Origin: Alphaproteobacteria bacterium
GTDB taxonomy: Bacteria; Pseudomonadota; Alphaproteobacteria; Micavibrionales; UBA2020
DNA length: 64,000 nucleotides
Direction of reading: 5' to 3'
Assembly: GCA_021413445.1 (NCBI GenBank)
Contig: JAIOQI010000021.1
Coordinates: 47,871-111,870, forward strand
The notes under the pieces are model-generated. The model was not told the DNA's origin. It saw only the letters and a list, made by a program, of their open reading frames with translations, and ran no database searches. Shown piece after piece: positions 19,038 to 56,244 of this stretch. The translations under genes and the position numbers were made by a program. Each line of letters begins with the position of its first letter. The first letter of the stretch is position 1.

Positions 19038-19979
19038 ATGACAGCATGTCTCAAAATCGGCACGCGCGGCAGCCCGCTGGCGCTGGCGCAGACAGAACTC
19101 CTGATCGCCCAGTTGCGCGGGAAACACCCCGCATTGCGCGAGCCGGGGGCGGTGGAAATCGTGAAAATCGTCACCACCGGCGACAAGATCCAGGACCGCG
19201 CCCTCTCCGAAGTGGGTGGCAAGGGCCTTTTCACCAAAGAGATCGAGGAAGCCCTGCTCGACGGCGCGATTGACTGCGCCGTCCATTCGATGAAAGATAT
19301 GCCGACGCAGTTGCCGTTGGGATTGTCCATCCCCTGCCTGTTGCCGCGGGAAGACGTCCGTGACGCATTTTTTTCACTGAAGGCGGAGACGCTGGACAGC
19401 CTGCCGCCCGGTGCCGTGATCGGCACCTCCAGCCTGCGCCGGCAGGCCATCATTCTGGCGCGCCGCCCCGACCTGAAAACAACCGTCCTGCGCGGCAATG
19501 TCGGCACACGGCTGAAAAAACTTGAAGAGGGTGCGGTCGATGCGACCATCCTGGCCGTGGCGGGACTGAACCGGCTGGGGCAAAGTCATTTGATTAAAAA
19601 CATCCTGGAGCCGGAAGTGATGCTGCCCGCCGTGGCGCAAGGCGCCGTCGGCATCGAGGTGCGCGAGAACGACGCCCGCGTCAAGGCGCTTCTTTCCGCC
19701 GTGCATTGCAACATAACCGAATTGCGCGTGACGGCGGAGCGTGCCTTTCTGGAAGTGATGGACGGTTCCTGCAAGACGCCACTCGCCGCGCTGCTGGGCG
19801 TGCCGGACCCGCAGCACCGCGCGCGTTTTGATGTATTGGTGGCGCGCCCGGACGGCAGCGATGTCAGGAAAGAATCCTACCTGATGCAGGTGTCGAATTT
19901 AAATGAGGCACGGCAACTGGGTCAGCATGCGGGCAATGAGCTGAAGGCGAAGCTGCCCGCCGGATATTTTTCGTTTTAA
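19038..19979 (+). CDS. hemC: Hydroxymethylbilane synthase (porphobilinogen deaminase) HemC
   Basis: LKIGTRGSPLALAQ, TTGDKIQDRALSEVGGKGLFTKEIE and GTSSLRRQ are typical of HemC. Confidence 0.9.
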   Translation: MTACLKIGTRGSPLALAQTELLIAQLRGKHPALREPGAVEIVKIVTTGDKIQDRALSEVGGKGLFTKEIEEALLDGAIDCAVHSMKDMPTQLPLGLSIPCLLPREDVRDAFFSLKAETLDSLPPGAVIGTSSLRRQAIILARRPDLKTTVLRGNVGTRLKKLEEGAVDATILAVAGLNRLGQSHLIKNILEPEVMLPAVAQGAVGIEVRENDARVKALLSAVHCNITELRVTAERAFLEVMDGSCKTPLAALLGVPDPQHRARFDVLVARPDGSDVRKESYLMQVSNLNEARQLGQHAGNELKAKLPAGYFSF

Positions 19980-20708: not shown

Positions 20709-22811
20709 ATGCGTTCCGTTCTCGTCACCCGCCCCCAGCCGATGGCCGATGAATTTGCGGAGAAGCTGCGCCGTGAAGGCTTCGGGGTCTATCTGGCGCC
20801 GATGATGGAATACGTTGAAATGGAAGCCGATCTTGACGACCTGGGCCCTTACCAGGCTCTGGTTTTCACCAGCGCGCAAACGGTGCGGGTTTTTTCCCGC
20901 CGCTCCCGCGAACGGCGGCTGCCCGTGCTGGCGGTGGGCGATGCCACGGCGGAAACGGCGAGCCTGGCCGGGTTCACCGAAGTCTATTCGGCCAAAGGCA
21001 ACGGCAAAGACGTGGTCAACCTGATCCGCGCTAAGGCAAAAGAGCTGTCGCTTAAAAAAGTCCTTCACCCCTGCAGTGAAAATACACCGCACGACATCAG
21101 CGTCACCGCCGGCAAGTTCGGCGTAAAAATCGTCCAGCGCCAGCTCTACAAAGCGCGTTTTGTCGATCGGCTTCCGGACGATGTGTTGTGGGCCCTGCAG
21201 GACGACAACATCGACACTGTGACCTTGTTCTCCGCGAGAACCGCCGCCAATTTTGTCCGTATCATGCAGCAGGACAACCTGCGCGGCGTCAGTAAAAAAA
21301 TAAGAGTCGTCTGCATTAGTGAGCAGGTGGCGGCAGCCGTAAAGGATGTCCCTTGGCGGGAAGTAAACGTTTCCCCCCAGCCCAACACGGGGTCGATGCT
21401 GGAAATCCTGAAAGAACGGAAACCTATATACGCGGATATGGCGCCCCTGCCCGTGGAAGCCGTCATCCTTGCTTTCGGCGGCATCCGGCCGCTGGCCAAC
21501 CGGCTTAAAATCACCTCCAGCACCGTGCAGGGCTGGAAGAAGCGCGGCATCATCCCCGAGATCCGCACGGAAGCCGTGCTGCGGGCGGCCAAAGAGGACG
21601 GGATTGATATCGCCCGGCTGCGCGGAAAAGAAACGGAAAAAGCGAAACTACCGGCGCAAAACCAGGTAAAGCCGCCGCCCGCCGGCCCCCGCGTCCACAA
21701 GCAACCGCCGCAAGACGCTATCCTCCAGGAAAAACTGCGGTTCCTGAAACGCGGGGCCCTGACCTTCGTTGTTATATTTATTGCGGCGGGACTGGTGGGT
21801 CTTTTCCTTTTAGCTCCCGAATACTCCTATATAAAAACCCACCCCTTCACTTTCGGCAAAACTCTCGGCAGCCAGATCAGGAATCTCACCCAACCCCTGG
21901 CCACCGCCGCCAGCCAAATTGAAACAACCGCTTTCAGCGCCGGTTCCCCGCAGGAACTCCTGAGCATGCTGAATGACGTGGCAGCGCTACGCCAGACGCC
22001 GGAAGGCAGCGCCGCCATAGCCGAATCCCTGAAGACGCTGCACGCGCTTCTCGCCCAGTCCCCGGACGCGCCTGAAAATATAGATGCCGCCGTCAACGCG
22101 GCGCGAAGCCGCGACCAGACGCTGAACGGCCTGTTAGGCCAGGTCGGCGTCAAGGACGTGGCGGCGGGGGCGATGCTGCTTGCCCTGAACGAGTTCAGGA
22201 ATAATTTTGACAACCACCGCCCTTATGCCGAGGATTTGGCGCTGTTGCAGAAACTGGCGGGGAACGACCCGGAAACAAGCCGCGCCCTGCAGCGCCTGTC
22301 CCCCTACGCCCGAAAAGGCGTCATGAGCCGCGAAGCCCTGCAGGTGGAACTCAAAGGCCTTGCCGCCGACGTCGTCCTGGCAAAAGTGCAGGGCCAGAAC
22401 GTCTCGGTAAAGGAACAGGCCTTGCAACGGCTCGACAAATTGTCAAAATCCGCCCGCGCCGGAGATATACAGGGCCGGGAAACCGAGGCGGTTGTAGCGC
22501 GGGCGCAATTGCTGCTGAACCAGGGCGATGTCAAAGGCGCGATGCGCGAACTGCAGGCGCTGGAAGGCGCATCGGCGCAAACCGTCGAACCCTGGATGGA
22601 CAATGCCGCGGGATATGTGATCGCCGGCCAATCTTCAGACGACCTGACACAGGTCATCCTGCAGGCTGTCTCGGGGGGTTCCACTTCTTCGCTGGAAAGT
22701 TTTCTGTCCTCAATCAAGGAAGCGATCAGCGGCCCTGATGTTCCCTATCTCTCCCCTGCCCTGAAAAACGGCAGCGGTTATGAAGGCGTATTGCCGCCAA
22801 CCGCGCCATAA
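20709..22811 (+). CDS. hemD: Fusion protein: uroporphyrinogen-III synthase (HemD) domain, a short helix-turn-helix-like segment, a TM anchor, and a mitofilin (Mic60)-like C-terminal region
   Basis: This is a single uninterrupted 700-codon frame. Residues 1-235 look like HemD (VLVTRPQ..., [20 protein letters not shown]). Residues 349-369 form a TM segment ([21 protein letters not shown]). Residues from about 520 to 650 read [12 protein letters not shown]...[41 protein letters not shown], matching my recollection of the alphaproteobacterial mitofilin-domain pattern. That pattern is GDL.gA...L..L followed by W.. near the C-terminus. Confidence 0.7.
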
Positions 22812-22835: not shown

Positions 22836-24212
22836 TTACTGGTTCATGACACGGAAGAATTCATCGTTGTTCTTGGTGTCCTTCAGCTTATCGAGCAGGA
22901 ATTCCATCGCATCGACGGTGCCCATCGGCGACAGAATGCGGCGCAGCATCCACATCTTGTGCAGGACATCCTTATCGACCAGCAATTCTTCTTGCCGCGT
23001 GCCGGATTTCTGGATGTCGCTCGCCGGGAAGACGCGCTTGTCGGAAATCTTGCGGTCGAGGACGATTTCGCTGTTGCCGGTACCCTTGAATTCTTCGAAG
23101 ATTACCTCGTCCATCCGGCTGCCGGTGTCGATCAGCGCCGTTGAAATGATGGTCAGTGATCCGCCTTCCTCGACGTTGCGGGCGGCGCCGAAAAAGCGCT
23201 TCGGGCGCTGCAGCGCGTTGGCATCGACGCCGCCGGTCAGGACCTTGCCGGAAGACGGGACGACGGTGTTGTAGGCCCGCGCCAGGCGGGTGATGGAATC
23301 AAGCAGGATCACCACATCGCGTTTGTGCTCGACCAGGCGCTTGGCTTTTTCCAGCACCATTTCCGCCACCTGGACGTGGCGCGATGCCGGCTCGTCGAAG
23401 GTGGAGCTGATGACTTCGCCCTTCACGGAACGGTCCATATCCGTCACTTCCTCGGGGCGCTCGTCGATCAGGAGCACAATCAGGTAGGCGTCCGGGTGGT
23501 TGGCCTCGATGGAATGGGCGATGTTCTGCATGATGACGGTCTTGCCGGTGCGCGGCTGCGCCACGATCAGGGCGCGCTGGCCGAAGCCGATCGGCGCCAC
23601 CAGCTCGATCACCCGCTGGATGTTGGCTTTCTTGGTCGGGTTGTCCAGCTCCAGCTTGATCTTGCGGGAAGGATAAAGCGGGGTCAGGTTGTCGAAGTTG
23701 ATGCGGTGCTTGATATTTTCCGGGTTCTCGAAGTTGATGGTGTTGACCTTCAGCAGGGCGAAGTAACGCTCGGTATCCTTGGGCGAGCGGATCTCCCCTT
23801 CGACGGTGTCGCCGGTGCGCAGGCCGAAGCGCTTGATCTGGCTGGGGGAGACGTAAATATCGTCGGGGCCGGGCAAGTAGTTCTCTTCCGGCGAACGCAG
23901 AAAGCCGAAGCCGTCCTGCAGCACTTCCAGCACGCCGGAGCCGACAATCGGGATGTCCTGCTCGGCCAGGCGCTTCAGGAGCGCGAACATTATTTCCTGC
24001 TTGCGCATGGTGGAACAGTTTTCGACGCCGATGTTCTCGGCGTAGGCCAGAAGCTCGGCCGGCGACTTGTCCTTCAGCTCGGTCAGGTTCATGGCCTTGC
24101 CGTCGGTGCTGCGCGTGGAGGCTTCCGCCTCCATCAGTTCGGCTTCGGAGGGGCCTTCGGGGATATTGGTGCCGCTGCTGGAACCTGTCTGGCGCGGGGG
24201 GCGTTTATTCAC
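22836..24212 (-). CDS. rho: Transcription termination factor Rho (canonical core begins at MNLTELKDK; the about 41-residue N-terminal extension is uncertain)
   Basis: It contains [14 protein letters not shown], the P-loop PRTGKT, and the C-terminal [27 protein letters not shown]. Confidence 0.95.
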
Positions 24213-24357
24213 GGGTGTTCTTCTTTCGTGGAAATGGGTTGGGGGGATATAAGATGCTTGAAACAGATCGAGGGGTGGGGGGTGTTTTATAAATATGTCC
24301 TGGCGCGTTCACGGAAACAGGCTGCCCTGCCTTCCCTTCGCAAACCGGATTGCTTTG

Positions 24358-24386
24358 ATTAAACCCCATAACGCGATGTATGTCAA
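24358..24386 (-). promoter_or_regulatory. Candidate sigma-70 promoter for rho
   Basis: The minus strand reads TTGACA (24386-24381), then 17 nt, then TTTAAT (24363-24358). This leaves a leader of about 140 nt before the first rho ATG. Confidence 0.4.
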
Positions 24387-24409
24387 CTCGTTTTAGACGG
24401 TCTCTTATA

Positions 24410-24440
24410 GAAAAAACCGGCAGAGGCCGCCCTCTGCCGG
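24410..24440 (-). terminator. Rho-independent terminator downstream of the 74-codon ORF
   Basis: A perfect 10 bp stem CCGGCAGAGG / CCTCTGCCGG with loop CCGC. On the minus strand it is followed by TTTTTTC. Confidence 0.6.
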
Positions 24441-24455
24441 TGAATGGTTTTTCCC

Positions 24456-24680
24456 CTAAAGTCCAAGCACCTTCCGGGCGTAGTTTTTCTGCCGCTCGGT
24501 CGTGGTTTTTTTGGCCGCAAACTCAAAAGCCTTGACGACTTTGGAAACAGTCAGTCCCTTCCTTTGAAATTCGGAAGCCGGAATAATGTCGATAAGCCGG
24601 TTGCCTTCCACAACAGAATAAGCGTCGTTGTTGCAGATGGAGCCTCTGTGGCCCTCGATAAAATATACGTTGATGGTCAT
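24456..24680 (-). CDS. Small hypothetical protein (74 aa)
   Basis: The ORF is bracketed by its own candidate promoter (24883-24911) and a strong terminator (24410-24440). AAAAGGAAAAAAGACC precedes the ATG. No family was recognised. Confidence 0.45.
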   Translation of the reverse strand: MTINVYFIEGHRGSICNNDAYSVVEGNRLIDIIPASEFQRKGLTVSKVVKAFEFAAKKTTTERQKNYARKVLGL

Positions 24681-24882
24681 GGTCTTTTTTCCTTTTAAAA
24701 TAAAGCGTTGGGTGTTTATTGCGTGGGAGGCGCGGATAAAAAACGCGGCATCCTCTTCGGGGGCAGAAATTCCTATAAGGGGGTTCTTAGGCTCTGCCCG
24801 CCAACATTCGCATGCGGGGCATCATGGTGCGCCCGTTTAAAAAAGATACTGAGTACTGCTGCGAATCGGTTTTCATATCTCT

Positions 24883-24911
24883 AATATATAAAAACCACAG
24901 CTCTTCGTCAA
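24883..24911 (-). promoter_or_regulatory. Candidate sigma-70 promoter upstream of a long leader and the 74-codon ORF
   Basis: The minus strand reads TTGACG (24911-24906), then 17 nt, then TATATT (24888-24883). Confidence 0.35.
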
Positions 24912-24938
24912 TATTTTAATACGAAAAACATCAGCCTC

Positions 24939-25388
24939 TCAAAACGGCTTCACGATCACCATGATGACGATCACGATCATCAGGACCGTCGGTATCTCAT
25001 TCGCCTTGCGGTAAAACGCCGCCGAATGATGGTTTTTGTCTTTCAGGAAAGCCTTGCGCCACCGCGACAGGAAGGCGTGGAATATCTGCATCAGGACAAG
25101 CGCCCCCAGTTTTACATGCATCCACCCCCCCGACGACAGGAGGCCGGGATTGGCGGCGAGCATCGCCAGCCCAAACCCCCAGGACAGGATCATCGCCGGA
25201 TTGATAATGATGCGCAAAAGTTTCCTTTCCATGATTTTAAGCGTTTCAGAAAGCTCCGAACCTTTGTCAGCGCCGGTATGATAAACGTAAAGCCGTGGCA
25301 GATATAACATCCCCGCCATCCAGGACATCACCGCGATGAGGTGAAGGGCTTTAAACCAGTCATAATGGGATAAAATAAAATCAGTCAT
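24939..25388 (-). CDS. hemJ: Protoporphyrinogen IX oxidase HemJ-type membrane protein (149 aa)
   Basis: MTDFILSHYDWFKALHLIAVMSWMAGMLYLPRLYVYH... with four TM segments is typical of the HemJ family. The ATG at 25388 overlaps the hemH stop. The longer 311-codon track ORF is an artefactual upstream extension through hemH. Confidence 0.8.
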   Translation of the reverse strand: MTDFILSHYDWFKALHLIAVMSWMAGMLYLPRLYVYHTGADKGSELSETLKIMERKLLRIIINPAMILSWGFGLAMLAANPGLLSSGGWMHVKLGALVLMQIFHAFLSRWRKAFLKDKNHHSAAFYRKANEIPTVLMIVIVIMVIVKPF

Positions 25389-26406
25389 TTTTCGCTCCTT
25401 TGTAACATTTGTTGAAACGGCCCGGGCAGGTTCTTTCGCTCGTCGCGGGAGCGTACAAAACCAGATCCCGCAAGCCCTCGATAAATTGGGGATGAGCGCC
25501 AACCGTGGGCACCCGCGCAAAATAAGGGATGCCCATTTCCTGCGCGCGCTGGCGATATTCAATGTCGATTTCCACCAGTGTTTCGACATGCTCCGATACA
25601 AAGGCGCAGGGATAGACAACAACCCCCGTCCTGTCCGCCGCCGCTTTTTGCAAAGCCTCCCCGATGGAGGGGCCGATCCACGGCAGCCGCCCGACCCGGC
25701 TCTGGTAGCAGAGCCGGCAATCCAGCCCCGGAATATCCAGTTGCCGGACAATCGCCGCTGCCGTTTGCTCGCACTGGTGCTGGTAGGGATCGCCGCGCCT
25801 GATGACTCTTTCCGGAAGGCCGTGCGCGGAAAGCAACAGCCGCGTTTTTTGCGGCGCTTTCCGCAAGGCCGCACGGATTAATTCCACGGAGGCGGTGATA
25901 AATCCCGCATTAAGAGGGTAACAGCAGATCTCCGTTGTTGGCAGCTCCAGCCCGAGCTTTTTTGCCGCCTGCTGCCAGTTCTGCAATGATGAAAAGCTGG
26001 TGGTGGTGGAAAACTGCGGATAAAGCGGCAACAGGACGATTTTGTCCGGCCGGAAAGCGGCGACCTCCTGAACCGTCTGTTCCGCCAGAGGATGCCAGTA
26101 GCGCATTGAAACAAAAACCCGCGCGCCGGGAGATTTTTCCTGCAAGGCCCGCTCCAGCGCCTCTGCCTGGGCGATGGTATTGGCCAGCAGCGGCGATGCC
26201 CCGCCCAGATGCCCGTAAGATTTTTTCGCCGCGCCGCCGCCGCGCCGCCATGAAATCCATTTTGCCAGGCCATAGCGCAGCGGCTGTGGCAGCGGAATGA
26301 TATTTTTATCCATGAAAAAATTGAACAGGAAGGGTTTGATGGCGGCCGCCGAAGAAGGCCCGCCCAGATTCAACAGCACCACGGCCAGCTTTTGCGTTGA
26401 CGGCAT
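25381..26406 (-). CDS. hemH: Ferrochelatase HemH
   Basis: VLLNLGGP, YPQFSTTT, SAHGLP and AFVSEHVETLVEID are typical ferrochelatase blocks. Confidence 0.9.
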   Translation of the reverse strand: MPSTQKLAVVLLNLGGPSSAAAIKPFLFNFFMDKNIIPLPQPLRYGLAKWISWRRGGGAAKKSYGHLGGASPLLANTIAQAEALERALQEKSPGARVFVSMRYWHPLAEQTVQEVAAFRPDKIVLLPLYPQFSTTTSFSSLQNWQQAAKKLGLELPTTEICCYPLNAGFITASVELIRAALRKAPQKTRLLLSAHGLPERVIRRGDPYQHQCEQTAAAIVRQLDIPGLDCRLCYQSRVGRLPWIGPSIGEALQKAAADRTGVVVYPCAFVSEHVETLVEIDIEYRQRAQEMGIPYFARVPTVGAHPQFIEGLRDLVLYAPATSERTCPGRFNKCYKGAKND

Positions 26407-27479
26407 TATCTTTGGTGCGTCTTGATGATTTTTGCCAGCTGCTCGATATGCTCCAGCGGCGTTTCCTTGATCACGCCGTGCCCCAGGTTGAAAATGAAGG
26501 GCGCGTTTTCGGCCGACTTCAGGATATAATGCAGGGCGCTTTCCAGCGGTTTTCCTCCAATCAGAAGCAAGACCGGGTCGAGGTTGCCCTGCAGGGCAAC
26601 TTTGCGGCCGAAGCTGTGCACCGCCTCTTTCAACGGGAAATACTGGTCAAGGCCGACGCAGCTCACCCCTGATTTTTCGGCATACGGCTGATAAAGCTGC
26701 CCGGCGCGGCGCGGGAAGCCGATCACGGGGAATTTGGGAAAAACCTTATGAATGTTGTCGACGATCTTGCGGGTGGGCGCGATCACCCAGCGCTCGAAAT
26801 AATGATCGGGCAGCAAACCCGCCCAGCTGTCGAAGATCTGCACCGTGTCCGCGCCATGCCGGATCTGCTCGATCAGGTAGCGCGACGTCGCCTCGACCAG
26901 AGTGTTGATGAGTTTATCAAAGCCGGAAGGGTTGCCGAAGGCGAATTTTTTGACTGCGGTGAATTCATTGTCGCCATGCCCTTGTATCATGTAACAGGCC
27001 ACCGTCCAGGGCGCGCCGGCAAAGCCGATCAGGGCTTTGTCCGGCTCCAGGGCTTCGCGGACGCGGCTGACGGTTTCATAGACCGGCTGAAGTTTTTTAT
27101 CAAAAGCGCCGATGTCAAAGTCATGAAAATCCTTCAGGCCCGGAAAGGGGCCAAGGCGCGGCCCCTCCCCCTCGGCAAAATCGAGCTTTTGCCCGAGGGC
27201 GTAAGGGATCACCAGGATGTCCGAAAAAAGAATCGCCGCATCCATGTCAAAACGCCGGAGGGGCTGCAGCGTCACTTCGGCGGCCAGTTCGGGACTGAAG
27301 CAAAGGTCGAGGAAAGACCCGGCCTTTTTGCGCAGCTCGCGGTACTCGGGCAAATAACGTCCGGCCTGCCGCATCAGCCAGAACGGCACGTAAGGCGTGG
27401 CTTCCCCTGCCAGGGCGCGCAGCAGCAGTTTTTCTTCCGGCAGCTTTTCTGATGGCATGTTCACTTTAATCTTCCTCAC
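26406..27479 (-). CDS. hemE: Uroporphyrinogen decarboxylase HemE (start may be the ATG at 27458)
   Basis: PFWLMRQAGRYLPEY, LFSDILV and the C-terminal FNLGHGV are HemE signatures. Confidence 0.9.
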   Translation of the reverse strand: MRKIKVNMPSEKLPEEKLLLRALAGEATPYVPFWLMRQAGRYLPEYRELRKKAGSFLDLCFSPELAAEVTLQPLRRFDMDAAILFSDILVIPYALGQKLDFAEGEGPRLGPFPGLKDFHDFDIGAFDKKLQPVYETVSRVREALEPDKALIGFAGAPWTVACYMIQGHGDNEFTAVKKFAFGNPSGFDKLINTLVEATSRYLIEQIRHGADTVQIFDSWAGLLPDHYFERWVIAPTRKIVDNIHKVFPKFPVIGFPRRAGQLYQPYAEKSGVSCVGLDQYFPLKEAVHSFGRKVALQGNLDPVLLLIGGKPLESALHYILKSAENAPFIFNLGHGVIKETPLEHIEQLAKIIKTHQR

Positions 27480-27959
27480 GGCAAGCGTCAGACGAAGATG
27501 CCAGCTTTCCCCCTGAAGTAAAAGAGAAACCCCTCTATCCTTAATAGATATATATAAGAAAGTAGTAGTAGATTGTAGGGCGGTGGACTACGGGGATGAA
27601 AACCAATGTACAGAGTTAACCACACCCCCCTGCCGCGGATTTGGCCAGAGGCTTTGAATAACTTTTGTATGTAGCGCCGGATTTGGCCGGGAGTCTGGTT
27701 TTTCCAGGCGGTGTGAATTGCGGGGATAAACGCTTTTCTGTCAAATATAGTTATCCACACTTCGAATATCCAGAGTCCGTCTCGGCATGAGGCCGGTATC
27801 CTCTTGTTCCGACTCGTGGATTATCCTCCGGTTTTTTTTACACACCTGTTTGTACGCAGGGTTATCTGCCAAGTTATCCACCAGTGGCCGGGGGGCCCGG
27901 TTGCTTTTCATTTTTTTTCCGATAGGATGAAAAGCAGGCCATCAAGGGGTTGGGTTGAT
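27480..27959. other. Candidate chromosomal replication origin (oriC), hemE-adjacent
   Basis: This is a 480 bp non-coding gap next to hemE. It holds one perfect DnaA box TTATCCACA (27751-27759) and two one-mismatch boxes, TTAACCACA (27616-27624) and TTATCCACC (27874-27882). Weaker boxes lie at 27821-27829 and on the minus strand at 27721-27729. There is an AT-rich tract at 27541-27575. Dominant gene orientation switches here, from mostly minus to the left to mostly plus to the right. Confidence 0.6.
27751..27759 (+). promoter_or_regulatory. Perfect consensus DnaA box
   Basis: An exact match to TTATCCACA inside the hemE-proximal intergenic region. Confidence 0.6.
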
Positions 27960-28568
27960 ATGAGCGAAGACTGGAAAAAGCTGGACGTTGAAGGCGCGGC
28001 GCGGGCGTTGAGCGAGATCAATCCGCAGCTGGAACCCATTCCTTTCAGTTCGGACACCACGACGATACGGACCATGAAACTCCCCTTTTACCGGGACTAT
28101 TTGCTCTATGAGCTGACGGACCTTTCCGCCGTTCCCGGCGCGCGCAAATACGCGCTTTACAAGCCGGGCGACGTACATGTGATTAACTGGACCAACCAGC
28201 CGATTTATGAAGTGAACGAAAAAGCGCCCGTGATGCTGAAAGAGAGCACGGTCGTTGATTACGTCAAGTTTTTCTTTGGCTACGTGCGCGGCCGCCATGG
28301 ACGCTTCACCATCATTGAAACGATCGATGACATCCGCTGGCAGATCGACCCCCCGGCGCAGGGCCGCAAGGTGATGCAGGAAATGCTCGAGCCGGTGACC
28401 CTGACCGACCTGGAGCCGGACGGCACCTTTAACCTCGAAGCCTTCATGCTTTTCAAAGATTCCCTATTCAAGACCCAGGTGCATGTCAAAAAGGACGGGC
28501 TGGTCAGCATGTCCAGCGAAGAGCTGAAGATCGAGGGCATGCCGATCTTGCAGGATGTCGCGGTCTAG
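27960..28568 (+). CDS. Conserved-looking hypothetical protein on the origin flank (about 202 aa)
   Basis: I chose the ATG at 27960 (MSEDWKKLDVEG...). The track ORF start at 27804 would run through the DnaA-box region. No domain was recognised. Confidence 0.5.
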   Translation: MSEDWKKLDVEGAARALSEINPQLEPIPFSSDTTTIRTMKLPFYRDYLLYELTDLSAVPGARKYALYKPGDVHVINWTNQPIYEVNEKAPVMLKESTVVDYVKFFFGYVRGRHGRFTIIETIDDIRWQIDPPAQGRKVMQEMLEPVTLTDLEPDGTFNLEAFMLFKDSLFKTQVHVKKDGLVSMSSEELKIEGMPILQDVAV

Positions 28569-28574
28569 GGGGGT

Positions 28575-29633
28575 ATGGGCTTCCTGTTTCAAGAACCTAT
28601 CGGACGTGAAGCGCGCCCCGCATGGGCGGAGGTTCCGCCGGCGCTGGTGGCTCAGCTTCAGGAGCTCCTGAAACAAAAAATCATTCATGCCGATATTGCC
28701 TGGGGCGGCTATTCGCCCTCCGCGACATTCGTGGCGACGCTGGCTTCGTGGGAAAAAGCTTTCATCAAAGGGACCCACCCCGGACAGGACACCCACGGGA
28801 CCCAGATGCTGCGCCAGGAAATCGAGGCCTATCAGACGCTGCCGGACATCCAGAGTTTTTCCCCCGCCTATCTCGGGTGCGTGAGCGATGGCCGTGAAGA
28901 GGGATGGATGCTGGCGGCTTTCGATAGTATCGACACGCTGCCGACCCTGCCCTGGACGGAAGAAAAAATAACCACCGTTTTCAGGCTGCTTTCCCGCCTT
29001 CATTTTTGCGACAAAAAAAATATCCCCCCGGCGCTGCCCCCCGCGCGGGATAAAAACTATATCGAGAAATTTCTCCGCCCCGAGGGCGGCTGGCTGCGCT
29101 TCAGGGACGAGCGGCAGACGGCGGACAAGTTTTTGGCCCTTTTTGAGGATCAGGATGCAGGCAGGGACTGGCTTTCGTCAGCCCTGCCCCGGCTTTGCGA
29201 AAAACAGGCCAAAGCCCATATGACCGGCGGCGCTGTGGGGATGCTCCATCAGGACTTGCGCTCGGACAATATCCTCTTCGACCGGGAGGACAGGGCCTAT
29301 CTGGTGGACTGGGTGAATGCGTGCCAGGGGCCGGTGGTCATGGACCTTGCCCAGTTTCTGCCCGCCGTCAGCGCCGAAAGCGCGTTCGAATGCGGGGCGC
29401 TGCTCGGGTTGTACGAGAAAATATCCGGCGTGAAAATCGACCGGGAGAGTTTGGTGATTGCTCTCGCCTCCGCGTCGGGGCACATGGCCGACAACGCTTA
29501 CCGGGCCGTTCCCGCGAAACTACCGCGGCTGCGCTGGATGCAGAAAAGCGTGCTGTGGGCCATGCTGCAGTGGGCTGTCGTTCTGATGGACATTCCGCCG
29601 CCGCCGCGTTTTACCGGGCCTTATCATGATTAA
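28575..29633 (+). CDS. Phosphotransferase (aminoglycoside/choline kinase-like, APH family) protein
   Basis: It has a kinase-like catalytic loop LHQDLRSDNILF followed by YLVDWVNA, which is the HxDxxxxN ... D pattern. Confidence 0.7.
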   Translation: MGFLFQEPIGREARPAWAEVPPALVAQLQELLKQKIIHADIAWGGYSPSATFVATLASWEKAFIKGTHPGQDTHGTQMLRQEIEAYQTLPDIQSFSPAYLGCVSDGREEGWMLAAFDSIDTLPTLPWTEEKITTVFRLLSRLHFCDKKNIPPALPPARDKNYIEKFLRPEGGWLRFRDERQTADKFLALFEDQDAGRDWLSSALPRLCEKQAKAHMTGGAVGMLHQDLRSDNILFDREDRAYLVDWVNACQGPVVMDLAQFLPAVSAESAFECGALLGLYEKISGVKIDRESLVIALASASGHMADNAYRAVPAKLPRLRWMQKSVLWAMLQWAVVLMDIPPPPRFTGPYHD

Positions 29634-30894
29634 GGCCCTGCTCTGTTCGCGCCATTTCATGCCGCTGTTCATGACCCAGTTCCTGGGTGCGCTGAATGAC
29701 AATATTTTTAAAAACGCGCTGGTGATTTTTGTGCTGTTCGCGCTGGCGCCGCACAATGCCCCGCTTTACGCCACGGCGGCGGCGGGGATATTCATCCTGC
29801 CTTTCGTGCTGTTTTCGGCCCTGGCGGGTTTTTTCTCCGACACCATCGACAAAGCGGCAATCATGCGCGCGGTGAAAGCCGCCGAGATCGCGATCATGCT
29901 GCTGGCCGCCGCCGCCTTTTACCTGCAGAGCGCTTATTTTCTGCTGTTCGTTTTGTTCCTGATGGGAACGCATTCGGCTTTTTTCGGCCCGGCAAAGTAC
30001 TCGATCCTGCCGCAGCACCTGCCGCCGGAAATGCTGGTGGCTGGCAACGGCCTCTTGTCGCTGGGAACTTTTGTGGCGATTTTATTGGGCGCCATCATCG
30101 GCACGCTGGGTATTGCCGGAGAAAACGGCGTGGAAACCATTGCCTTCATATGTCTTGCGGTTGCGGTGGCCGGTTCCTGGTGCAGTTTTTATATTCCCGC
30201 CGCGCCCCCCGCTCCGTCAAATATCGGTCTGTCGCTGCACCCCCTGAAAGACACCGGCAGAATGTTGTCTTTGACTCTCTCCGGCAAAGAGATCCGCCGC
30301 TGCGCCATTGCGATTTCATGGTTCTGGTTTTTGGGCGTCACCTACCTGACGCAGTTCCCCAACCTGGCGGTCCAGGTTTTTCATGCCGATGAAAGCGTGG
30401 TGACGCTGTTTCTGGTGATGTTCACGCTGGGGGTCGCCGCAGGCTCCCTGCTGTGCGGAAAACTTCTTCATGACCGGGTTTCCACCCATCTGGCCTCTTA
30501 CGCTGCCCTGGTTCTGGCGCTTTTCGGCCTGGATTTCTGCGCGGCGGCAAAAAACTATACGCCCTCCGGCGTGGTTCCGGCGAACATCATTGCATTCATC
30601 GCGCAGGGATTTTTGCCCCTGCGCCTGCTTTTCGACCTGTTTATATTGTCCACCGCCGGTGGTGTTTTTTACGTGCCTTTATATGCCCGGGTGCAAAGGC
30701 TCATCCCACTGGAGCGGTGCGCCCGGGTGATGGCGGGCATCGGCTTCCTGAATGCGGTTTTCATGGCGCTTTCCAGCCTTGTGGGCCTGGTTCTTCTGGC
30801 GCTGGGATTCTCCAGCCTTGGCGTGATTTTTGTCAGTGTTTTCATGACATTGGGCGTAGCCCTCTATTGCCGCCCTCCCGGGAAACACGCCTAA
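29626..30894 (+). CDS. MFS transporter, lysophospholipid transporter (LplT)-like
   Basis: 422 aa with about 12 hydrophobic segments. The N-terminal FMPLFMTQFLGALNDNIFKNAL resembles the LplT signature. Confidence 0.7.
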   Translation: MIKALLCSRHFMPLFMTQFLGALNDNIFKNALVIFVLFALAPHNAPLYATAAAGIFILPFVLFSALAGFFSDTIDKAAIMRAVKAAEIAIMLLAAAAFYLQSAYFLLFVLFLMGTHSAFFGPAKYSILPQHLPPEMLVAGNGLLSLGTFVAILLGAIIGTLGIAGENGVETIAFICLAVAVAGSWCSFYIPAAPPAPSNIGLSLHPLKDTGRMLSLTLSGKEIRRCAIAISWFWFLGVTYLTQFPNLAVQVFHADESVVTLFLVMFTLGVAAGSLLCGKLLHDRVSTHLASYAALVLALFGLDFCAAAKNYTPSGVVPANIIAFIAQGFLPLRLLFDLFILSTAGGVFYVPLYARVQRLIPLERCARVMAGIGFLNAVFMALSSLVGLVLLALGFSSLGVIFVSVFMTLGVALYCRPPGKHA

Positions 30895-31125: not shown

Positions 31126-32160
31126 ATGACCAATGACATCGATCGTGATGGCGAGCCTTTAGTCAAGAAACCAAAAACGACGGGGTTTAAAGACACCTCG
31201 AAGCGGCTGCGGCGCGGCAAGGAAAACCATATCGCGCACCGCGCCAGCCTGGACTGGCGCCAGGACCGCGACCGGGTTTGCACCCCGTTTGGCGACGTCG
31301 TTGATTATGTCGATCTTGCCGAATTGAAAGCTGTCGTCATAAAATCCGGCACCGGCGAGGCGCTTTTGTGCGGGGACAGCGCCAGAGGTTTAAATGTCTA
31401 TTATGATTCACAGGTGCCGGTGTCGCAGTTTTACCCGCGGGACAAGGAATGTTTCATCACCCTTAACCCGCACCACACCAAAGGCGAGCTTCTCAATATG
31501 CTGGTGCGCGAACTGCGCCGCGCCTGGCAGTATTATCAGGGTGCCTTGATCAATCCGATGCGTTTTGAGCCGGACGAGGCCATATTGGTCAACCGCGCCC
31601 AGCAGGCTGACGTGCTGATGGCATCGGTCAAGGTAGCCTGGGAGCTGAAGCTGGCGGGCGAGGCGGAAGCCTGGAATTTTATGGCCGGGTCGCCGATGGC
31701 GGATGTGACGCGCGTGTTTGAAATTCATGCCCAGAAAGATTTCCGCACACTGAACAACGGCGAAGCTTCCCGCGCGGCCTACGACAAATTTTTCGAGGAG
31801 AAGCGCACCAAGGCGCATGACAAGCGGATCATCCACCAGATGCTTCTGGATGACCTGGGATACATGAAGGCGCCGCAGAAATTTCCCAAGGTCGGCATGG
31901 ACCTGTTCAGAAAACTGGGCGAGATGCCGTACGGGCGCAACTATCTGTCGATCAGCAGCAAAAAACCGCCGACGGACACGTGCTATTCCACGATCGAGGA
32001 CCGCTCCAACGCCAATTTCCTGTGGTTCATCAAGTTTGAGCGCAGCTTCCAGGAAAAAGAGCAGGAGATGCTGCAGGAATCGGCCAAGGCTTCGGCGAAC
32101 GTCGTTGATTTCACCCGCTGGTCTTCGCAGGCGCGGCGCCAGCAGGGGCCGGGAACCTAG
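31126..32160 (+). CDS. Hypothetical protein, paralogue of the HExxH protein at 42309-43274 but with a degenerate motif (RELRR)
   Basis: A strong RBS GAAGGAGG precedes the ATG. It shares the block I.L.P....L..LV.ELR..WQY.Q......NR...AD with the 42309 gene, but the histidines are replaced (LVRELRRAWQYYQ). Confidence 0.6.
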   Translation: MTNDIDRDGEPLVKKPKTTGFKDTSKRLRRGKENHIAHRASLDWRQDRDRVCTPFGDVVDYVDLAELKAVVIKSGTGEALLCGDSARGLNVYYDSQVPVSQFYPRDKECFITLNPHHTKGELLNMLVRELRRAWQYYQGALINPMRFEPDEAILVNRAQQADVLMASVKVAWELKLAGEAEAWNFMAGSPMADVTRVFEIHAQKDFRTLNNGEASRAAYDKFFEEKRTKAHDKRIIHQMLLDDLGYMKAPQKFPKVGMDLFRKLGEMPYGRNYLSISSKKPPTDTCYSTIEDRSNANFLWFIKFERSFQEKEQEMLQESAKASANVVDFTRWSSQARRQQGPGT

Positions 32161-34849: not shown

Positions 34850-35779
34850 GTGGTGAATATCGCCGGCCTCCCCCTGTCGGTCGGCGGGGTGACCGTCAAC
34901 CGTTTTTGCGGTTCCTCGATGCAGTCCATCCATCAGGCCGCCGGCGCCATCCAGATGAACGCCGGCCACGCCTTTATCTGCGCCGGGGTCGAGTCAATGT
35001 CGCGCATCCCGATGGGCGGTTTTAACCCCCTGCCCAACCCGGCGCTGGCGAAAAATTACCCGCAGGCCTATATCAGCATGGGCGAGACCGCTGAAAATCT
35101 TTCCAAAAAATACCAGGTGAGCCGCGACCGCCAGGAAAAATTCGCCCTGTCCTCCCAGCAGAAAGCCACCGCCGCGCGGGCTGGTGGAAAACTGAAGGAG
35201 GAGATTGTGCCTGTCATGAATGGGGAAGGCACCCTTGTGAGCGAGGATGGCTGCATCCGCCCGGAAACGACGGCGGAGGCGCTGGCGGGATTAAAGCCGG
35301 CCTTCGACCAGTTCGGCACCGTGACGGCGGGGACCTCCTCGCCGCTGACGGACGGCGCTTCGGCGACCTTGGTGACGTCCGAGGAATACGCCAAGGCGCA
35401 CGGCCTCAAAATCCTGGCGCGGATCAGGTCCATCGCCGTGACCGGCTGCGCGCCGGAGATCATGGGCATCGGCCCTGTCGAGGCCACCCGCAAGGCGCTG
35501 GAGCGCGCAAAGCTGACCATTAAGGACATTGACATCGCCGAGCTGAACGAAGCCTTCGCCGTGCAGGTCCTGTCCGTGCTGCAGGAGCTGGGGCTGGATG
35601 AGGCGAAAATCAATCTCGATGGCGGCGCAATCGCGCTCGGCCATCCGCTGGGCGCTTCCGGCGCCCGCATCACCGGCAAGGCCGCCAACCTGCTGAAGCG
35701 TGAAGGCAAGCAATTCGCCCTGGCGACAATGTGTATCGGCGGCGGCCAGGGAATCGCGACGGTATTAGAGGCGGCGTGA
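34850..35779 (+). pseudogene. 5-prime-truncated FadA-type 3-ketoacyl-CoA thiolase (lacks about 70 N-terminal residues)
   Basis: The active-site block VNRFCGSSMQ, normally near residue 90, sits at residue about 20 of this ORF. Thiolase-like sequence can be followed back only to about 34838, and an in-frame stop lies at 34823-34825. The prmA 5-prime end occupies the space where the N-terminus would be. The C-terminus (ATMCIGGGQGIATVLE) is intact. Confidence 0.55.
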
Positions 35780-37845: not shown

Positions 37846-39723
37846 ATGAAGAAATTTGATGTCATAGTGATTGGCGGCGGACATGCGGGCTGCGAGGCGG
37901 CGGCCGCGGCGGCGCGCATGGGCGCGCAAACCCTGCTGTTGACACATCGAATCGATTCCATCGGCGTCATGTCCTGCAATCCCGCCATCGGCGGTTTGGG
38001 CAAGGGGCATCTGGTGCGCGAGATAGATGCGCTGGACGGCGTGATGGGGCGCGTGATTGACCGCTCCGGCATCCAGTTCAGGATCCTGAATGCCAGCAAA
38101 GGCCCCGCTGTGCGTGGGCCGCGGGCCCAGGCCGACCGCAGGCTCTATCGCGAGAACATGCAGCAAATATTGCTCAATTATCCCAACCTGGAAATTTTCG
38201 CGGACGGCGCGGAAGAAATCCTGCGCGATGCGGCGGGCCATATCAGCGGCATTAAAACCACCGCTGGTCACGTGTTTTCCTGCGCCGCGCTGGTGGTGAC
38301 CACCGGCACTTTTTTGCGTGGGATCATTCATCGCGGCGCCCTTCAGCAGCCGGCGGGGCGGGTGGGGGAAAAACCTTCCGTTGGCCTGGCGCTCAGCCTT
38401 GAGAAATTGAATCTGCCGCTGGGGCGCCTGAAAACCGGCACCCCGGCCCGGCTGGACGGGCGCACCATCAACTGGTCCATCCTTGAAGAGCAGGCCGGCG
38501 ATACGCCGCCCACTCCCTTCTCTTTTATGACAAACAAAATCACCGTGCCGCAGATCAGCTGCCATATCACTTATACCAATGAAAAAACCCATCAGATTAT
38601 CCGCGATAACCTGCATGTGGCGCCGATGTATTCGGGGCAGATAAAATCCTCCGGGCCGCGTTATTGCCCGTCGATTGAAGACAAGGTGGTGCGCTTCGCC
38701 GACAAAACGCGCCATCAGGTGTTTTTGGAGCCGGAAGGGCTCGACGACCATACCGTTTATCCGAACGGCATTTCCACCTCGCTTCCTGAAGAGGTGCAGC
38801 AGGCCATGATCGAGACCATCCCCGGCCTTGAAAAGGCCACGATCTTGCAAGCGGGCTATGCGGTGGAATACGACTATATCGATCCCCGCGCCCTGAAGCA
38901 TACCCTGGAAATCAAGACCGTCCCGGGATTGTTCCTGGCCGGGCAGATCAACGGTACGACAGGCTATGAAGAAGCGGCGGCGCAAGGGTTGATCGCCGGC
39001 ATCAACGCCGCCCTGCGCGCCGGCAGCGGCGATAGCCAGACCTTTGTGCTCGACCGCGCTGACGGTTATATCGGCGTCATGATTGATGATTTGGTCACGC
39101 AGGGCGTTTCCGAGCCTTACCGGATGTTCACCTCGCGCGCCGAATACCGCCTGCTGTTGCGCGCCGATAATGCCGACCAGCGCCTGACCCCGGCGGGGAT
39201 TTCGATCGGCTGCGTCGGTGCGGAGCGCGCCGGCGCTTTTGAGGCGAAGCACCTTTCCCTGAACAGCCTCCGCGAACAGATACAAGCCCTGACCGCACTG
39301 CCCATCGAATTGGAGCGGGCAGGGTTCAAGATCAACCAGGACGGCGTGCGCCGCACCGCCCATGACATGATGCGCTATCCGGAAATCAATTTTGAGGTGC
39401 TGAAGAAATTCTGGCCGGAGCTGGCTTCCGTGCCTGCCGACATTGCCGAACAGATTGAAATCGACGCCCGCTACGCCGGCTATATTCAGCGTCAAGAGGC
39501 TGATATTAAAGCCTTTCGCCGCGATGAGGCGCTCTTGATTCCGGCGGACCTGGACTACAATATGATCGGCTGTCTCTCCAACGAGATGCGGCTGAAATTG
39601 TCAAAATTCCGTCCCGAAACGTTGGGCGCGGCGGGGCGTATCCCCGGCGGCACGCCGGCGGCCATGGTGGCGCTGTTGCGTTACATCAAGCGTAAATCCA
39701 AGACAGAGAAAAAAGTTGCCTGA
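37846..39723 (+). CDS. mnmG: tRNA uridine 5-carboxymethylaminomethyl modification enzyme MnmG (GidA)
   Basis: [38 protein letters not shown] and [16 protein letters not shown] are typical of MnmG. Confidence 0.95.
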
Positions 39724-40339
39724 TTTTATCCACTATCCTTTTGAAAAATACGGCCTCGACGTTTCACGTGAAACACGCGAGAAGTTTAACCGCTATGCGG
39801 AAATTTTACTGAAGTGGCAAAATGCCATCAATCTTGTCAGCGAAGCCACGCTGGAAGATATGGTGAAAAGGCACTTTCTGGATTCCGCGCAGCTGATGAA
39901 ATATATCCCCAATAAAAACATCAAACTGGCGGATCTGGGCTCTGGCGCCGGGTTTCCGGGCCTGGTGCTGGCGATGCTGGGCGTTGCAGAAGTGCATTTA
40001 ATTGAATCGGATGTGCGCAAGGCGACTTTTTTGCGCGAGGTTTCACGTGAAACCTCTGTAAAAACATTTATTCACGACGACAGGATTGAAGAGACAAAAA
40101 TCGACAATCTGGATTTTATCACCGCCCGCGCCCTGGCGCCCCTGAAAGACCTGTTGGTGATGGCAGCTGGTCTTTCCACACCCGGCCACCCGGCGACATG
40201 TCTGTTTATGAAGGGCGAAAAAACGGAAGAGGAGCTTGCTAAGGCTCAGAAAAAGTGGGGTTTTTCTCTCGAGGTCCACCAAAGTGTTACGGAACAATCC
40301 GGAAAAATATTAAAAATCAACAACTTAAGTAAAAAATAA
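39716..40339 (+). CDS. rsmG: 16S rRNA (guanine527-N7)-methyltransferase RsmG (GidB)
   Basis: It has [10 protein letters not shown], the SAM motif [16 protein letters not shown], and ITARALA. Confidence 0.9.
39760..39775. promoter_or_regulatory. parS centromere-like site 1 (inside rsmG)
   Basis: cGTTTCACGTGAAACa has the perfect 14 bp palindromic core of the parS consensus TGTTTCACGTGAAACA. Confidence 0.75.
40039..40054. promoter_or_regulatory. parS centromere-like site 2 (inside rsmG)
   Basis: gGTTTCACGTGAAACc has the perfect 14 bp core. Confidence 0.75.
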
Positions 40340-40367
40340 TAAATTATTTTTTATATTTTTATTTCAA

Positions 40368-40383
40368 AGTTTCACGTGAAACA
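40368..40383. promoter_or_regulatory. parS centromere-like site 3 (rsmG-parA intergenic)
   Basis: aGTTTCACGTGAAACa matches 15 of 16 positions of the consensus and lies in an AT-rich spacer upstream of parA. Confidence 0.8.
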
Positions 40384-40445
40384 TAATGTTTATATTTATA
40401 AATAGACCTTGATTGTTACGTTCTATCCGGGCTATTAAATGGATT

Positions 40446-41306
40446 ATGAATCAGGTTTTGCCGAAAAACAGCCTTCTTCCTGTCTCCCAAGGCGGGAATA
40501 TCCGCCCCGCCGCGACACGCTATATCAGCGTTTCCAACCAAAAGGGCGGCGTCGGAAAAACAACCACAACCATCAATCTTTCCACGGCTTTAGCGGCGAC
40601 CGGCAAAAAAGTTCTGGTGATTGATCTGGACCCGCAGGGCAATGCCTCCACCGGCCTGGGCGTTGACCGCTCCAGCCGCCTGAATGACAGTTATGGGGTG
40701 CTTTTCGGGGAATGCGACATCGACCAGGCGGCCGTGCCGACCAAGGTGCCCAATCTTTTTGTTATCCCAGCCTCTATCCACCTTTCCGGCGCGGAAATCG
40801 AGCTGGTCGATGCCAAGCAGCGGGAATTTCGCCTGAAAACGGCGCTGGAAAAGAGTGAAACGCAGTATGATTATGTCATGTTCGACTGCCCACCATCTCT
40901 TAACCTATTGACTTTAAACGCTTTAGTGGCATCAACCGGAGTCCTGGTTCCTTTGCAGTGCGAGTTTTTTGCGCTGGAAGGATTGAGCCATCTCGTCAAC
41001 ACGATCGAACGTGTCAGGGGTAGTTTTAACCCGCACCTGGAACTGATGGGGGTTGTCCTGACGATGTATGACAAAAGAAACAACCTGTCAAATCAGGTGG
41101 CGGAGAATGTCCGGGCCCATTTCGGGGATAAAGTCTATGAAGCGGTTATTCCCCGCAATGTGCGCATTTCCGAGGCGCCATCTTTCGGCCTGCCGGCGAT
41201 CGTCTATGACATGAAGTGCAACGGCTCGCAGGCTTATATCCAGCTCGCCAAGGAAATACTGAAGCGCGAAAAAAATACGCAAGTGAAGTACGGCGCCGCG
41301 GTTTAA
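40446..41306 (+). CDS. parA: Chromosome partitioning ATPase ParA
   Basis: It has the deviant Walker A SNQKGGVGKTTT, and DCPPSL. I chose the ATG at 40446 over the TTG at 40413. Confidence 0.9.
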   Translation: MNQVLPKNSLLPVSQGGNIRPAATRYISVSNQKGGVGKTTTTINLSTALAATGKKVLVIDLDPQGNASTGLGVDRSSRLNDSYGVLFGECDIDQAAVPTKVPNLFVIPASIHLSGAEIELVDAKQREFRLKTALEKSETQYDYVMFDCPPSLNLLTLNALVASTGVLVPLQCEFFALEGLSHLVNTIERVRGSFNPHLELMGVVLTMYDKRNNLSNQVAENVRAHFGDKVYEAVIPRNVRISEAPSFGLPAIVYDMKCNGSQAYIQLAKEILKREKNTQVKYGAAV

Positions 41307-41324
41307 AAAATACGGAGTAGGACG

Positions 41325-42293: not shown

Positions 42294-42308
42294 TTGCGGG
42301 GGAGCGTT

Positions 42309-55872: not shown

Positions 55873-56244
55873 ATGAAGGAAGATAATCTTTATTATAAAG
55901 CACATATTTTTTGCTGCAACAATGAACGCCCGGCCGGGCACCCCAAGGGCTGCTGCAAGGAAAAAGGCGCCGAGCCCCTGCGTAATTACATGAAGACCAA
56001 GATCAAGGAGCTGGGGATCCAGGAGGTGCGGGTCAATCTTTCCGGCTGCCTGGACCGCTGCGCGCTGGGGCCGACGATGGTCATTTATCCCGAAGGGGTC
56101 TGGTACACCTATGCCTCCACGGCGGATATCGACGATATCATCGAACAGCACCTGCAAAAGGGCGGGCGGGTGAAAAGGCTGCTGCTGACGGCGGATCAGA
56201 AAGAGCTGCGGGACGAGCAAAAACAAGGGCGGCAAAAAAACTGA
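55873..56244 (+). CDS. Thioredoxin-like [2Fe-2S] ferredoxin-domain protein
   Basis: HIFCC...KGCC...LSGCLDRCALGPTMVIYPEGVWY shows the Cys pattern of (2Fe-2S) ferredoxin-domain proteins. Confidence 0.75.
   Translation: MKEDNLYYKAHIFCCNNERPAGHPKGCCKEKGAEPLRNYMKTKIKELGIQEVRVNLSGCLDRCALGPTMVIYPEGVWYTYASTADIDDIIEQHLQKGGRVKRLLLTADQKELRDEQKQGRQKN

Follow-up and report, generated by a model that had tools for sequence, protein, structure and literature searches.

A probable chromosomal replication origin between hemE and a conserved hypothetical gene in an uncultured alphaproteobacterium

We analysed a stretch of 64,000 nucleotides of contig JAIOQI010000021.1, from an uncultured alphaproteobacterium (hereafter the window; all positions are counted from its first letter), and examined the 480-bp gap that separates hemE from a divergent conserved hypothetical gene for a protein of 202 amino acids, which we denote hyp202. 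This gap, 27480-27959, is very probably the DnaA-dependent chromosomal origin of replication (oriC) of the organism. A preliminary description of the window had proposed an oriC at this place, and the proposal is supported by the DnaA boxes, the direction of the genes, the comparison with relatives, an unwinding module, GANTC sites, the position beside hemE and the polarity of the GC skew. The gap appears to be homologous, by its position, to the hemE-linked origin found in Caulobacter and Rickettsia. What the present analysis, which covers 64 kb of the replicon, shows directly is the sequence elements with their significance and conservation, and the polarity of the skew.

Results

DnaA boxes clustered within the hemE-hyp202 gap

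The elements of the gap and its two boundary genes are as follows.

26406-27479, minus strand: hemE (uroporphyrinogen decarboxylase; TIGR01464, E = 6e-118), left boundary gene of the gap
27480-27959, no strand: hemE/hyp202 intergenic gap, candidate oriC, 480 bp; singled out by the top DnaA-box cluster of the window, by AT content and by comparison with relatives
27541-27561, no strand: AT-rich tract, proposed DNA unwinding element; 10% G+C; conserved in relatives as ATATATAAGTATTA
27560-27571, plus strand: DnaA-trio-like run AAG TAG TAG TAG; read from the box side, 3'-GAT-5' three times
27582-27590, minus strand: trio-proximal DnaA box TAGTCCACC; 3 mismatches; majority form in relatives TTATCCACC
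27591-27599, minus strand: second DnaA box TCATCCCCG, abutting the trio-proximal box; 3 mismatches; majority form in relatives TTATCCCCG
27616-27624, plus strand: DnaA box TTAACCACA; 1 mismatch; unchanged in the relative L081; majority form in relatives TTATCCACA
27691-27695: third GANTC site, GAGTC
27712-27720, minus strand: DnaA box CAATTCACA; 3 mismatches; majority form in relatives TTATCCACA, majority fraction 0.85
27721-27729, minus strand: DnaA box TTATCCCCG, in tandem with the box at 27712-27720; 2 mismatches
27751-27759, plus strand: exact consensus box TTATCCACA; best conserved block of the alignment, majority fraction 0.91
27773-27815, no strand: two GANTC (CcrM-type) sites spaced by 38 bp, GAGTC (27773) and GACTC (27811)
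27815-27829: overlapping weak boxes TAATCCACG (minus strand) and TTATCCTCC (plus strand); 2 mismatches each; only moderately conserved
27862-27882, plus strand: tandem boxes TTATCTGCC and TTATCCACC (27874-27882), starts 12 bp apart
27901-27936 (core 27903-27930), plus strand: conserved GCTTTTCA ... TAGGATGA block; not counted as an origin element
27960-28568, plus strand: hyp202 (202 aa), right boundary gene of the gap; adjoins hemE in 42 loci

The box TTATCCACA at 27751-27759 is the sole exact DnaA box in the window, where about 0.27 would be expected from base composition. Boxes with at most one mismatch number 19 in the window (6.5 expected), three of them in the gap and all three on the plus strand, and the gap is the richest 480-bp segment both for these and for boxes with at most two mismatches (9, as against 1.2 expected). 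The exact box and the one-mismatch boxes at 27616-27624 and 27874-27882 have the coordinates and sequences first reported for them, and the weaker boxes reported at 27821-27829 (plus strand) and 27721-27729 (minus strand) were recovered with two mismatches each. Within the tandem at 27862-27882, TTATCTGCC has three mismatches and reads TTATCCAAA in relatives, while TTATCCACC at 27874 has one mismatch and reads TTATCCACA in relatives (majority fraction 0.90). The 18-nt tandem-box unit of 27582-27599 recurs at 27713-27730 (repeat D2).

The weighted box-cluster score of the gap was 14. In 300 simulations that kept local composition, the maximal score averaged 5.0 and reached 8 at most, with 0/300 runs attaining 14, and the second-best cluster of the window scores 6 and lies within coding sequence. 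The gap is therefore a non-coding region with a significant DnaA-box cluster. The window has 12 further gaps that exceed 200 bp, and a TTATNCACA box occurs in none of them. The runner-up cluster, at 34.4-34.8 kb, was rejected, as it consists of two-mismatch hits only, inside the prmA coding sequence. The preliminary description had named a denser cluster elsewhere as grounds for giving up the origin; within the 64 kb there is none, and the gap ranks top.

An 11-bp direct repeat, CGGATTTGGCC, is present at 27636-27646 and 27678-27688 as had been described, but it is not conserved in an 88%-identical relative or in 19 others; it is therefore probably due to chance, and we rejected it as an iteron.

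A putative unwinding module on the hemE side

The AT content of the gap is 51.7%, as compared with 42.3% for the window, and no other large gap in the window has comparable sites. The AT-rich tract previously delimited at 27541-27575 was confirmed (20% G+C). Its first 20-40 bp are the least stable in the gap and, over the whole 64 kb, rank 3rd-4th among the least stable duplex segments, so that an easily melted element lies beside the boxes.

In the basal unwinding system (BUS) of bacterial origins, DnaA boxes are followed by DnaA-trios, preceded by a G+C cluster, and then by the unwinding element (PMC7561715, PMC8287927, PMC6669920). The trio motif is 3'-NAN-5', ideally GAT, and we took the search rules from PMC8287927; the trio orientation rests on PMC7561715 and PMC8287927, together with the B. 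subtilis and E. coli sequences. The C. difficile sequence, which the module of the window resembles as it does that of B. subtilis, is quoted as 5'-CACCTACTACTATTACTACTATGA-3' (PMC7561715). Read on the minus strand from 27599 to 27541, the window has TCATCCCCG / TAGTCCACC / GCCCTACAAT / CTA CTA CTA CTT / TCTTATATATATCTATTAA, that is, two abutting DnaA boxes, the spacer GCCCTACAAT, four trios and the AT-rich tract. On the partner strand the trios read 3'-GAT-5' three times plus GAA, and one further TAG lies at 27576-27578. At least three consecutive trios in the right orientation (27560-27571) are thus found between a box and the proposed unwinding region.

Of the 42 relatives, 19 have the motif TAGTAGTAG (at most one mismatch) in their gap, on the same strand in all hits except one and about 40-130 bp from the hemE end. 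Its density is 1.22/kb in these gaps versus 0.019/kb outside them, a 64-fold difference. The tract, the trios, the spacer (there of 4 nt), TGTGnnnnn and CGGGGATnA are kept even in distant Micavibrio-like loci.

Conservation of the boxes among relatives

The best match to hemE among 185,579 species representatives is 71% identical, and the records matched are genomes assembled from metagenomes that bear the labels Alphaproteobacteria, Rhodospirillales or Micavibrio. We fetched 80 hemE loci, 42 of which keep hyp202 and hemE divergent, followed by hemH, hemJ and rho. The gap measures 300-600 bp in nearly all of the 42 loci (about 1.27 kb in two), and boxes with at most one mismatch reach 4.5/kb in these gaps versus 0.26/kb in the rest of the loci, a 17-fold enrichment.

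In an alignment of 20 gaps, including that of the window, conserved islands stand out from sequence that is otherwise free to vary. Every one of them falls on a box or another motif, and the boxes align column by column, at the 27582-27599 pair, 27616, the 27712-27729 pair, 27751 and the 27862-27882 pair. The distance of 123 bp between the boxes at 27751 and 27874 is identical in most close relatives. The majority fraction is 0.75 in annotated elements versus 0.51 elsewhere, a comparison that is not fully independent, as the element list was partly taken from the same alignment. The boxes have kept their positions across genomes whose hemE proteins are only 55-72% identical.

Outside the clade, a PF03618 (DUF299) protein is encoded divergently from hemE in 10 of the 10 loci tested; the gap there is 215-450 bp long and has a similar box density (5.0/kb).

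GC skew and gene direction

The cumulative GC skew is V-shaped over the window, falling from 0 to about -450 at 22-23 kb and rising to +500 at 64 kb, with a flat valley from 17.5 to 31 kb. Pooled GC skews of the plus strand are as follows.

Left arm: plus-strand genes -0.034; minus-strand genes -0.019
Right arm: plus-strand genes +0.028; minus-strand genes +0.065

The sign of the skew is independent of gene strand, which ties the skew to replication, and the polarity fits an origin, not a terminus. About 65% of coding bases are co-directional with replication on each arm, with genes diverging from the gap. The earlier statement that genes are almost entirely on the minus strand from 8.2 to 27.5 kb holds for most of that interval; "almost entirely" goes too far, since hemC and the hemD-fusion gene (about 3 kb) lie on the plus strand. 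The pooled profile of the 42 related loci, which is confounded by gene orientation, switches sign at the hemE gap: the skew is between -0.07 and -0.04 in the -1.5 and -1 kb bins and between +0.05 and +0.06 in those at +0.5 and +1 kb. The skew puts the origin in this neighbourhood; it cannot pick which gap.

Methylation sites, regulator sites and promoter-like elements

GANTC is the target of the alphaproteobacterial CcrM methylase. The gap contains three such sites, or 6.3/kb versus 1.6/kb for the window, and no GATC site; in the gaps of relatives the density of GANTC is 8.7/kb versus 1.5/kb outside (5.7-fold). The GAGTC at 27773 and the GACTC at 27811 stand in opposite orientation; 13 of the 20 aligned sequences have both of them at the same spacing of 38 bp, and the intervening sequence is free to vary. 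The pair occupies the same columns in L004-L006, L008, L009 and L011-L016. It may serve as a methylation pair, or a dimeric protein may have its site there. A reading of GAGTC...GACTC as an RNA or DNA hairpin was rejected, as the consensus fold pairs the invariant 5 bp only and shows no covariation. The conservation of these sites suggests, by analogy, cell-cycle methylation by a CcrM-type enzyme.

CtrA sites of the form TTAA-N7-TTAA, of which no convincing example had been reported, are indeed missing from the gap at up to one mismatch. The one match of the gap to the loose form TTWW-N7-TTWW is meaningless, and a site of this kind is present in 19 of the 42 related gaps. The IHF consensus WATCA-N5-WTR likewise has no match in the gap.

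The conserved GCTTTTCA ... TAGGATGA block near hyp202 is probably the promoter or leader of that gene. A 10-bp inverted repeat before hyp202 was rejected as a structure, as the 88%-identical relative L081 does not keep it. Just left of the exact box (27734-27772) relatives have a conserved block, ATTCCGTAAAC, which reads TTTCTGTCAAAT in the window and to which relatives add a GANTC site (GATTC). The exact box also lies in the spacer of a promoter-like site on the minus strand (TGGATA, 17 nt, TATATT), an arrangement that recalls the hemE promoter inside the Caulobacter origin (PMC6393856).

Discussion

A proposed order of events at the origin

We propose a course of initiation in which the binding order, the filament hand-off, the melting site and the methylation are predicted by analogy with other origins. 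DnaA would first occupy the consensus-type boxes at 27751 (exact), 27616 and 27874. ATP-DnaA would then fill the weaker boxes, among them those of TTATCCCC type at 27591-27599 and 27721-27729 and those at 27582-27590, 27712-27720, 27815-27829 and 27862-27870. The left-most abutting pair (27582-27599), which faces hemE, might next hand a DnaA oligomer to the strand that carries the TAG repeat (27560-27571, plus strand), whereupon the AT-rich tract 27541-27561 would open for helicase loading and replication would proceed in both directions. The GANTC sites would place these events under cell-cycle methylation by a CcrM-type enzyme, without CtrA or IHF consensus sites.

Comparison with known origins

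The Caulobacter origin (Cori) is flanked by hemE and CC0001, a COG1806/DUF299 gene (PMC1914354). Of its seven DnaA boxes, two are moderate G-boxes and five are weak W-boxes; it further contains five CtrA sites, a single IHF site, five GANTC sites and a region rich in AT (PMC1914354, PMC6393856, PMC4468827). Its G-boxes carry a T-to-G substitution that weakens them (PMC4468827). Like Cori and the origin of Rickettsia prowazekii, the gap is an intergenic stretch of some 400-500 bp between divergent genes, directly upstream of hemE (PMC1914354), contains several DnaA boxes including weak sites as well as an AT-rich region, and is not adjacent to dnaA. Like Cori, it also carries GANTC sites and putative promoters within the origin (PMC6393856). 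Judged by the features listed in PMC1914354, it shares the hemE-adjacent position, as hemE (26406-27479, minus strand) abuts the gap; unlike Cori, the gap has neither CtrA nor IHF consensus sites, its far flank is hyp202 rather than a DUF299/COG1806 gene, and its strongest boxes are of the TTATCCACA consensus type rather than weakened G-boxes. In Wolbachia, COG1253 stands at the boundary-gene position instead of COG1806 (PMC1914354), and the clade studied here appears, in the same way, to have kept the origin site and replaced one boundary gene.

The putative module on the minus strand resembles the B. subtilis BUS in the order and orientation of its tandem boxes, short G+C-containing spacer, at least three trios and AT-rich tract (PMC8287927, PMC7561715). 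It differs in that both boxes of the window have three mismatches and lie 10 and 19 nt from the trios, and in that the origin is not beside dnaA.

In E. coli oriC, high-affinity anchor boxes have lower-affinity boxes between them, the unwinding element lies at the end beside an outward-pointing box, and methylation sites are concentrated. The gap has the same mixture of anchor and weak boxes, a terminal unwinding element by an outward-pointing box and a concentration of methylation sites; unlike E. coli oriC, it has GANTC instead of GATC, no 13-mer repeats, no IHF consensus site and other flanking genes.

An origin beside hemE is usual for this bacterial class, and the present results do not overturn current understanding: the BUS-like module, the absence of CtrA and IHF sites and the exchange of one flank vary a known type of origin only modestly. 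They do place an origin for a poorly sampled lineage known from metagenomes only, which aids genome orientation, growth-rate estimates from read depth and replichore analyses. The hemE-linked position has survived a swap of the opposite flank, and Alphaproteobacteria with an origin that is without the CtrA and IHF sites of the Caulobacter model conserve a Bacillus-type arrangement of box, trios and AT-rich tract.

Weighing the alternatives

Several observations weigh against an origin in the gap. Besides the missing CtrA and IHF sites, the three boxes with at most one mismatch are spaced 129 bp apart on average, and the published rule of at least three boxes with a mean distance below 100 bp (PMC7561715) applies only when two-mismatch boxes are included. 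The BUS rule asks for a box with at most two mismatches 0-16 bp from the first trio, and the window has none: the proximal box TAGTCCACC has three mismatches at 10 nt and the distal box TCATCCCCG three at 19 nt. Relatives do have such boxes, with one mismatch at 10 nt in both L007 (TTATCCACC) and L044 (TTATTCACA) and at most two mismatches at 13 nt in the Micavibrio-like L017 and L024, and we predict that the region works like a BUS without being a rule-conforming member. A stronger box cluster may also exist beyond the 64 kb, for example next to dnaA, which is outside the window.

The exact minimum of the cumulative skew also counts against the gap: it lies at 22.1-23.0 kb, about 5 kb to the left, and a naive change-point model with independent sites prefers 23.0 kb, with 27.7 kb worse by 4.2 log-likelihood units. 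Nearly all of this displacement comes from rho (22836-24212), whose skew is atypical: +0.072 on the plus strand (+60 G-minus-C) despite sitting on the negative-skew arm. A skew minimum elsewhere had been named beforehand as an argument against the origin, and the offset of about 5 kb within the window touches on it only weakly. The minimum could instead point to an origin in another gap of the window, such as the 726-bp region upstream of rho (24213-24938), which contains one box with one mismatch at 24587. At 22.8 kb, however, the window offers merely a 24-bp gap between two converging genes, and the skew of rho alone (+60) explains the displacement. Moreover, the single weak box of the 726-bp interval lies inside an open reading frame (ORF) of 74 aa with its own ribosome-binding site and terminator, the interval is down to 120-200 bp in several relatives, and it has neither a trio run nor a conserved box array; we therefore regard an origin there as very improbable.

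Hardly more probable is a gap that is a divergent promoter region only, with hemE and hyp202 regulated by DnaA and the true origin elsewhere on the replicon. DnaA doubles as a transcription factor, and the gap must house the promoters of both genes; a promoter-like site on the minus strand spans the exact box, a conserved block with -35/-10-like elements precedes hyp202, the skew minimum is about 5 kb away and the surroundings of dnaA fall outside the window. Against this, the skew polarity switches inside the window independently of gene strand, no other box cluster exists in the 17.5-31 kb valley, nine box-like sites with a trio and AT-rich module exceed the needs of promoter regulation, and the gap occupies the canonical alphaproteobacterial origin site (PMC1914354). 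As for a functionless, chance build-up of boxes, the gap is AT-richer than its surroundings and the DnaA motif is itself AT-rich; but none of the 300 simulations reached the observed cluster score, other gaps that are equally AT-rich have no boxes, and box positions are conserved where hemE is only 55-72% identical, by which this explanation is effectively refuted. We therefore hold to the gap as the origin of the chromosome, with a confidence that stops short of certainty because the data span 64 kb of the replicon, the minimum of the skew is some 5 kb away and the evidence is that of sequence.

Neighbourhood of the origin

The genes around the gap, other than its boundary genes, are as follows.

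19038-19979, plus strand: hemC
20709-22811, plus strand: hemD-fusion ORF
22836-24212, minus strand: rho
24939-25433, minus strand: hemJ
25381-26406, minus strand: hemH
28575-29633, plus strand: APH-family kinase
29626-30894, plus strand: LplT-like transporter
31126-32160, plus strand: DUF6782 protein
37846-39723, plus strand: mnmG
39716-40339, plus strand: rsmG
40413-41306, plus strand: parA
41325-42293, plus strand: parB
43276-44325, minus strand: holA

Genes typical of origin regions (rho, mnmG, rsmG and parAB) and three parS sites thus lie close to the gap. The parS sites, with 1-2 mismatches each, are at 39760-39775, 40039-40054 and 40368-40383, in and after rsmG and beside parAB (40413-42293), and bear out the report of a parAB/parS locus about 12 kb away. 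The third site lies within the most AT-rich stretch of the window (56/60 bases A or T; 40305-40400), just upstream of parA. Among the annotated ORFs scanned in the window dnaA was not found, nor was any tRNA gene found in the window. No known small RNA was detected in the origin, because the region has no Rfam match: no family appears in the whole window at gathering thresholds, and none in 27300-28100 at E values up to 1.

The rho-hemJ interval (24213-24938, 726 bp) holds the 74-aa ORF mentioned above (24456-24680, minus strand), which has a ribosome-binding site and a clear intrinsic terminator at 24418-24447; none of the 80 related loci has a homologue of it, and several relatives have just 120-200 bp between rho and hemJ. 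The hemE-hyp202 gap had been called the largest non-coding stretch near hemE, which is correct if this ORF is real; otherwise the 726-bp interval is larger.

The boundary gene hyp202

The product of hyp202 has no match in Pfam (including PF03618), NCBIfam or PADLOC or among PDB sequences. Across the clade its identity is 71-93%, where that of hemE is only 55-72%, and it has a fixed length and an invariant YVRGRHGRF motif. An exhaustive search gave 1397 representative clusters, and some homologues are giant proteins of 900-2270 aa with 2-4 copies of the domain alongside TPR, Sel1 or caspase domains. AlphaFold gave a confident model (predicted local distance difference test, pLDDT, 87.8; predicted template modelling score, pTM, 0.84), and Foldseek found no neighbour for it in the PDB (best E = 0.14, template modelling score below 0.25). 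One could imagine that the origin was rebuilt in the Micavibrio-related clade, with hyp202, of a fold unseen among solved structures, replacing DUF299, perhaps as a component or regulator of initiation that acts jointly with the GANTC pair of fixed spacing instead of control by CtrA; we consider this unlikely.

Other genes in the window

The 700-aa ORF at 20709-22811 (plus strand) has a HemD domain (1-236), a small helix-turn-helix-like 'carph-isopro' domain (249-301) and a C-terminal mitofilin (Mic60)-like segment (582-633), and may be a fusion of hemD with an alphaproteobacterial Mic60 homologue. The window has two DUF6782 (putative metallopeptidase) paralogues on the plus strand, one at 31126-32160, conserved downstream of hyp202 across the clade, and one at 42294-43274, directly after parB. 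A thiolase ORF at 34850-35779 (plus strand) covers profile positions 68-385 only, its N-terminus being missing, and adjoins prmA, which is on the opposite strand; a full-length thiolase lies at 49920-51110, of which this ORF may be a truncated paralogue. The gene mnmE (56244-57560, plus strand) lies 18 kb from mnmG and rsmG, outside the usual cluster of rho, mnmE, mnmG, rsmG and parAB.

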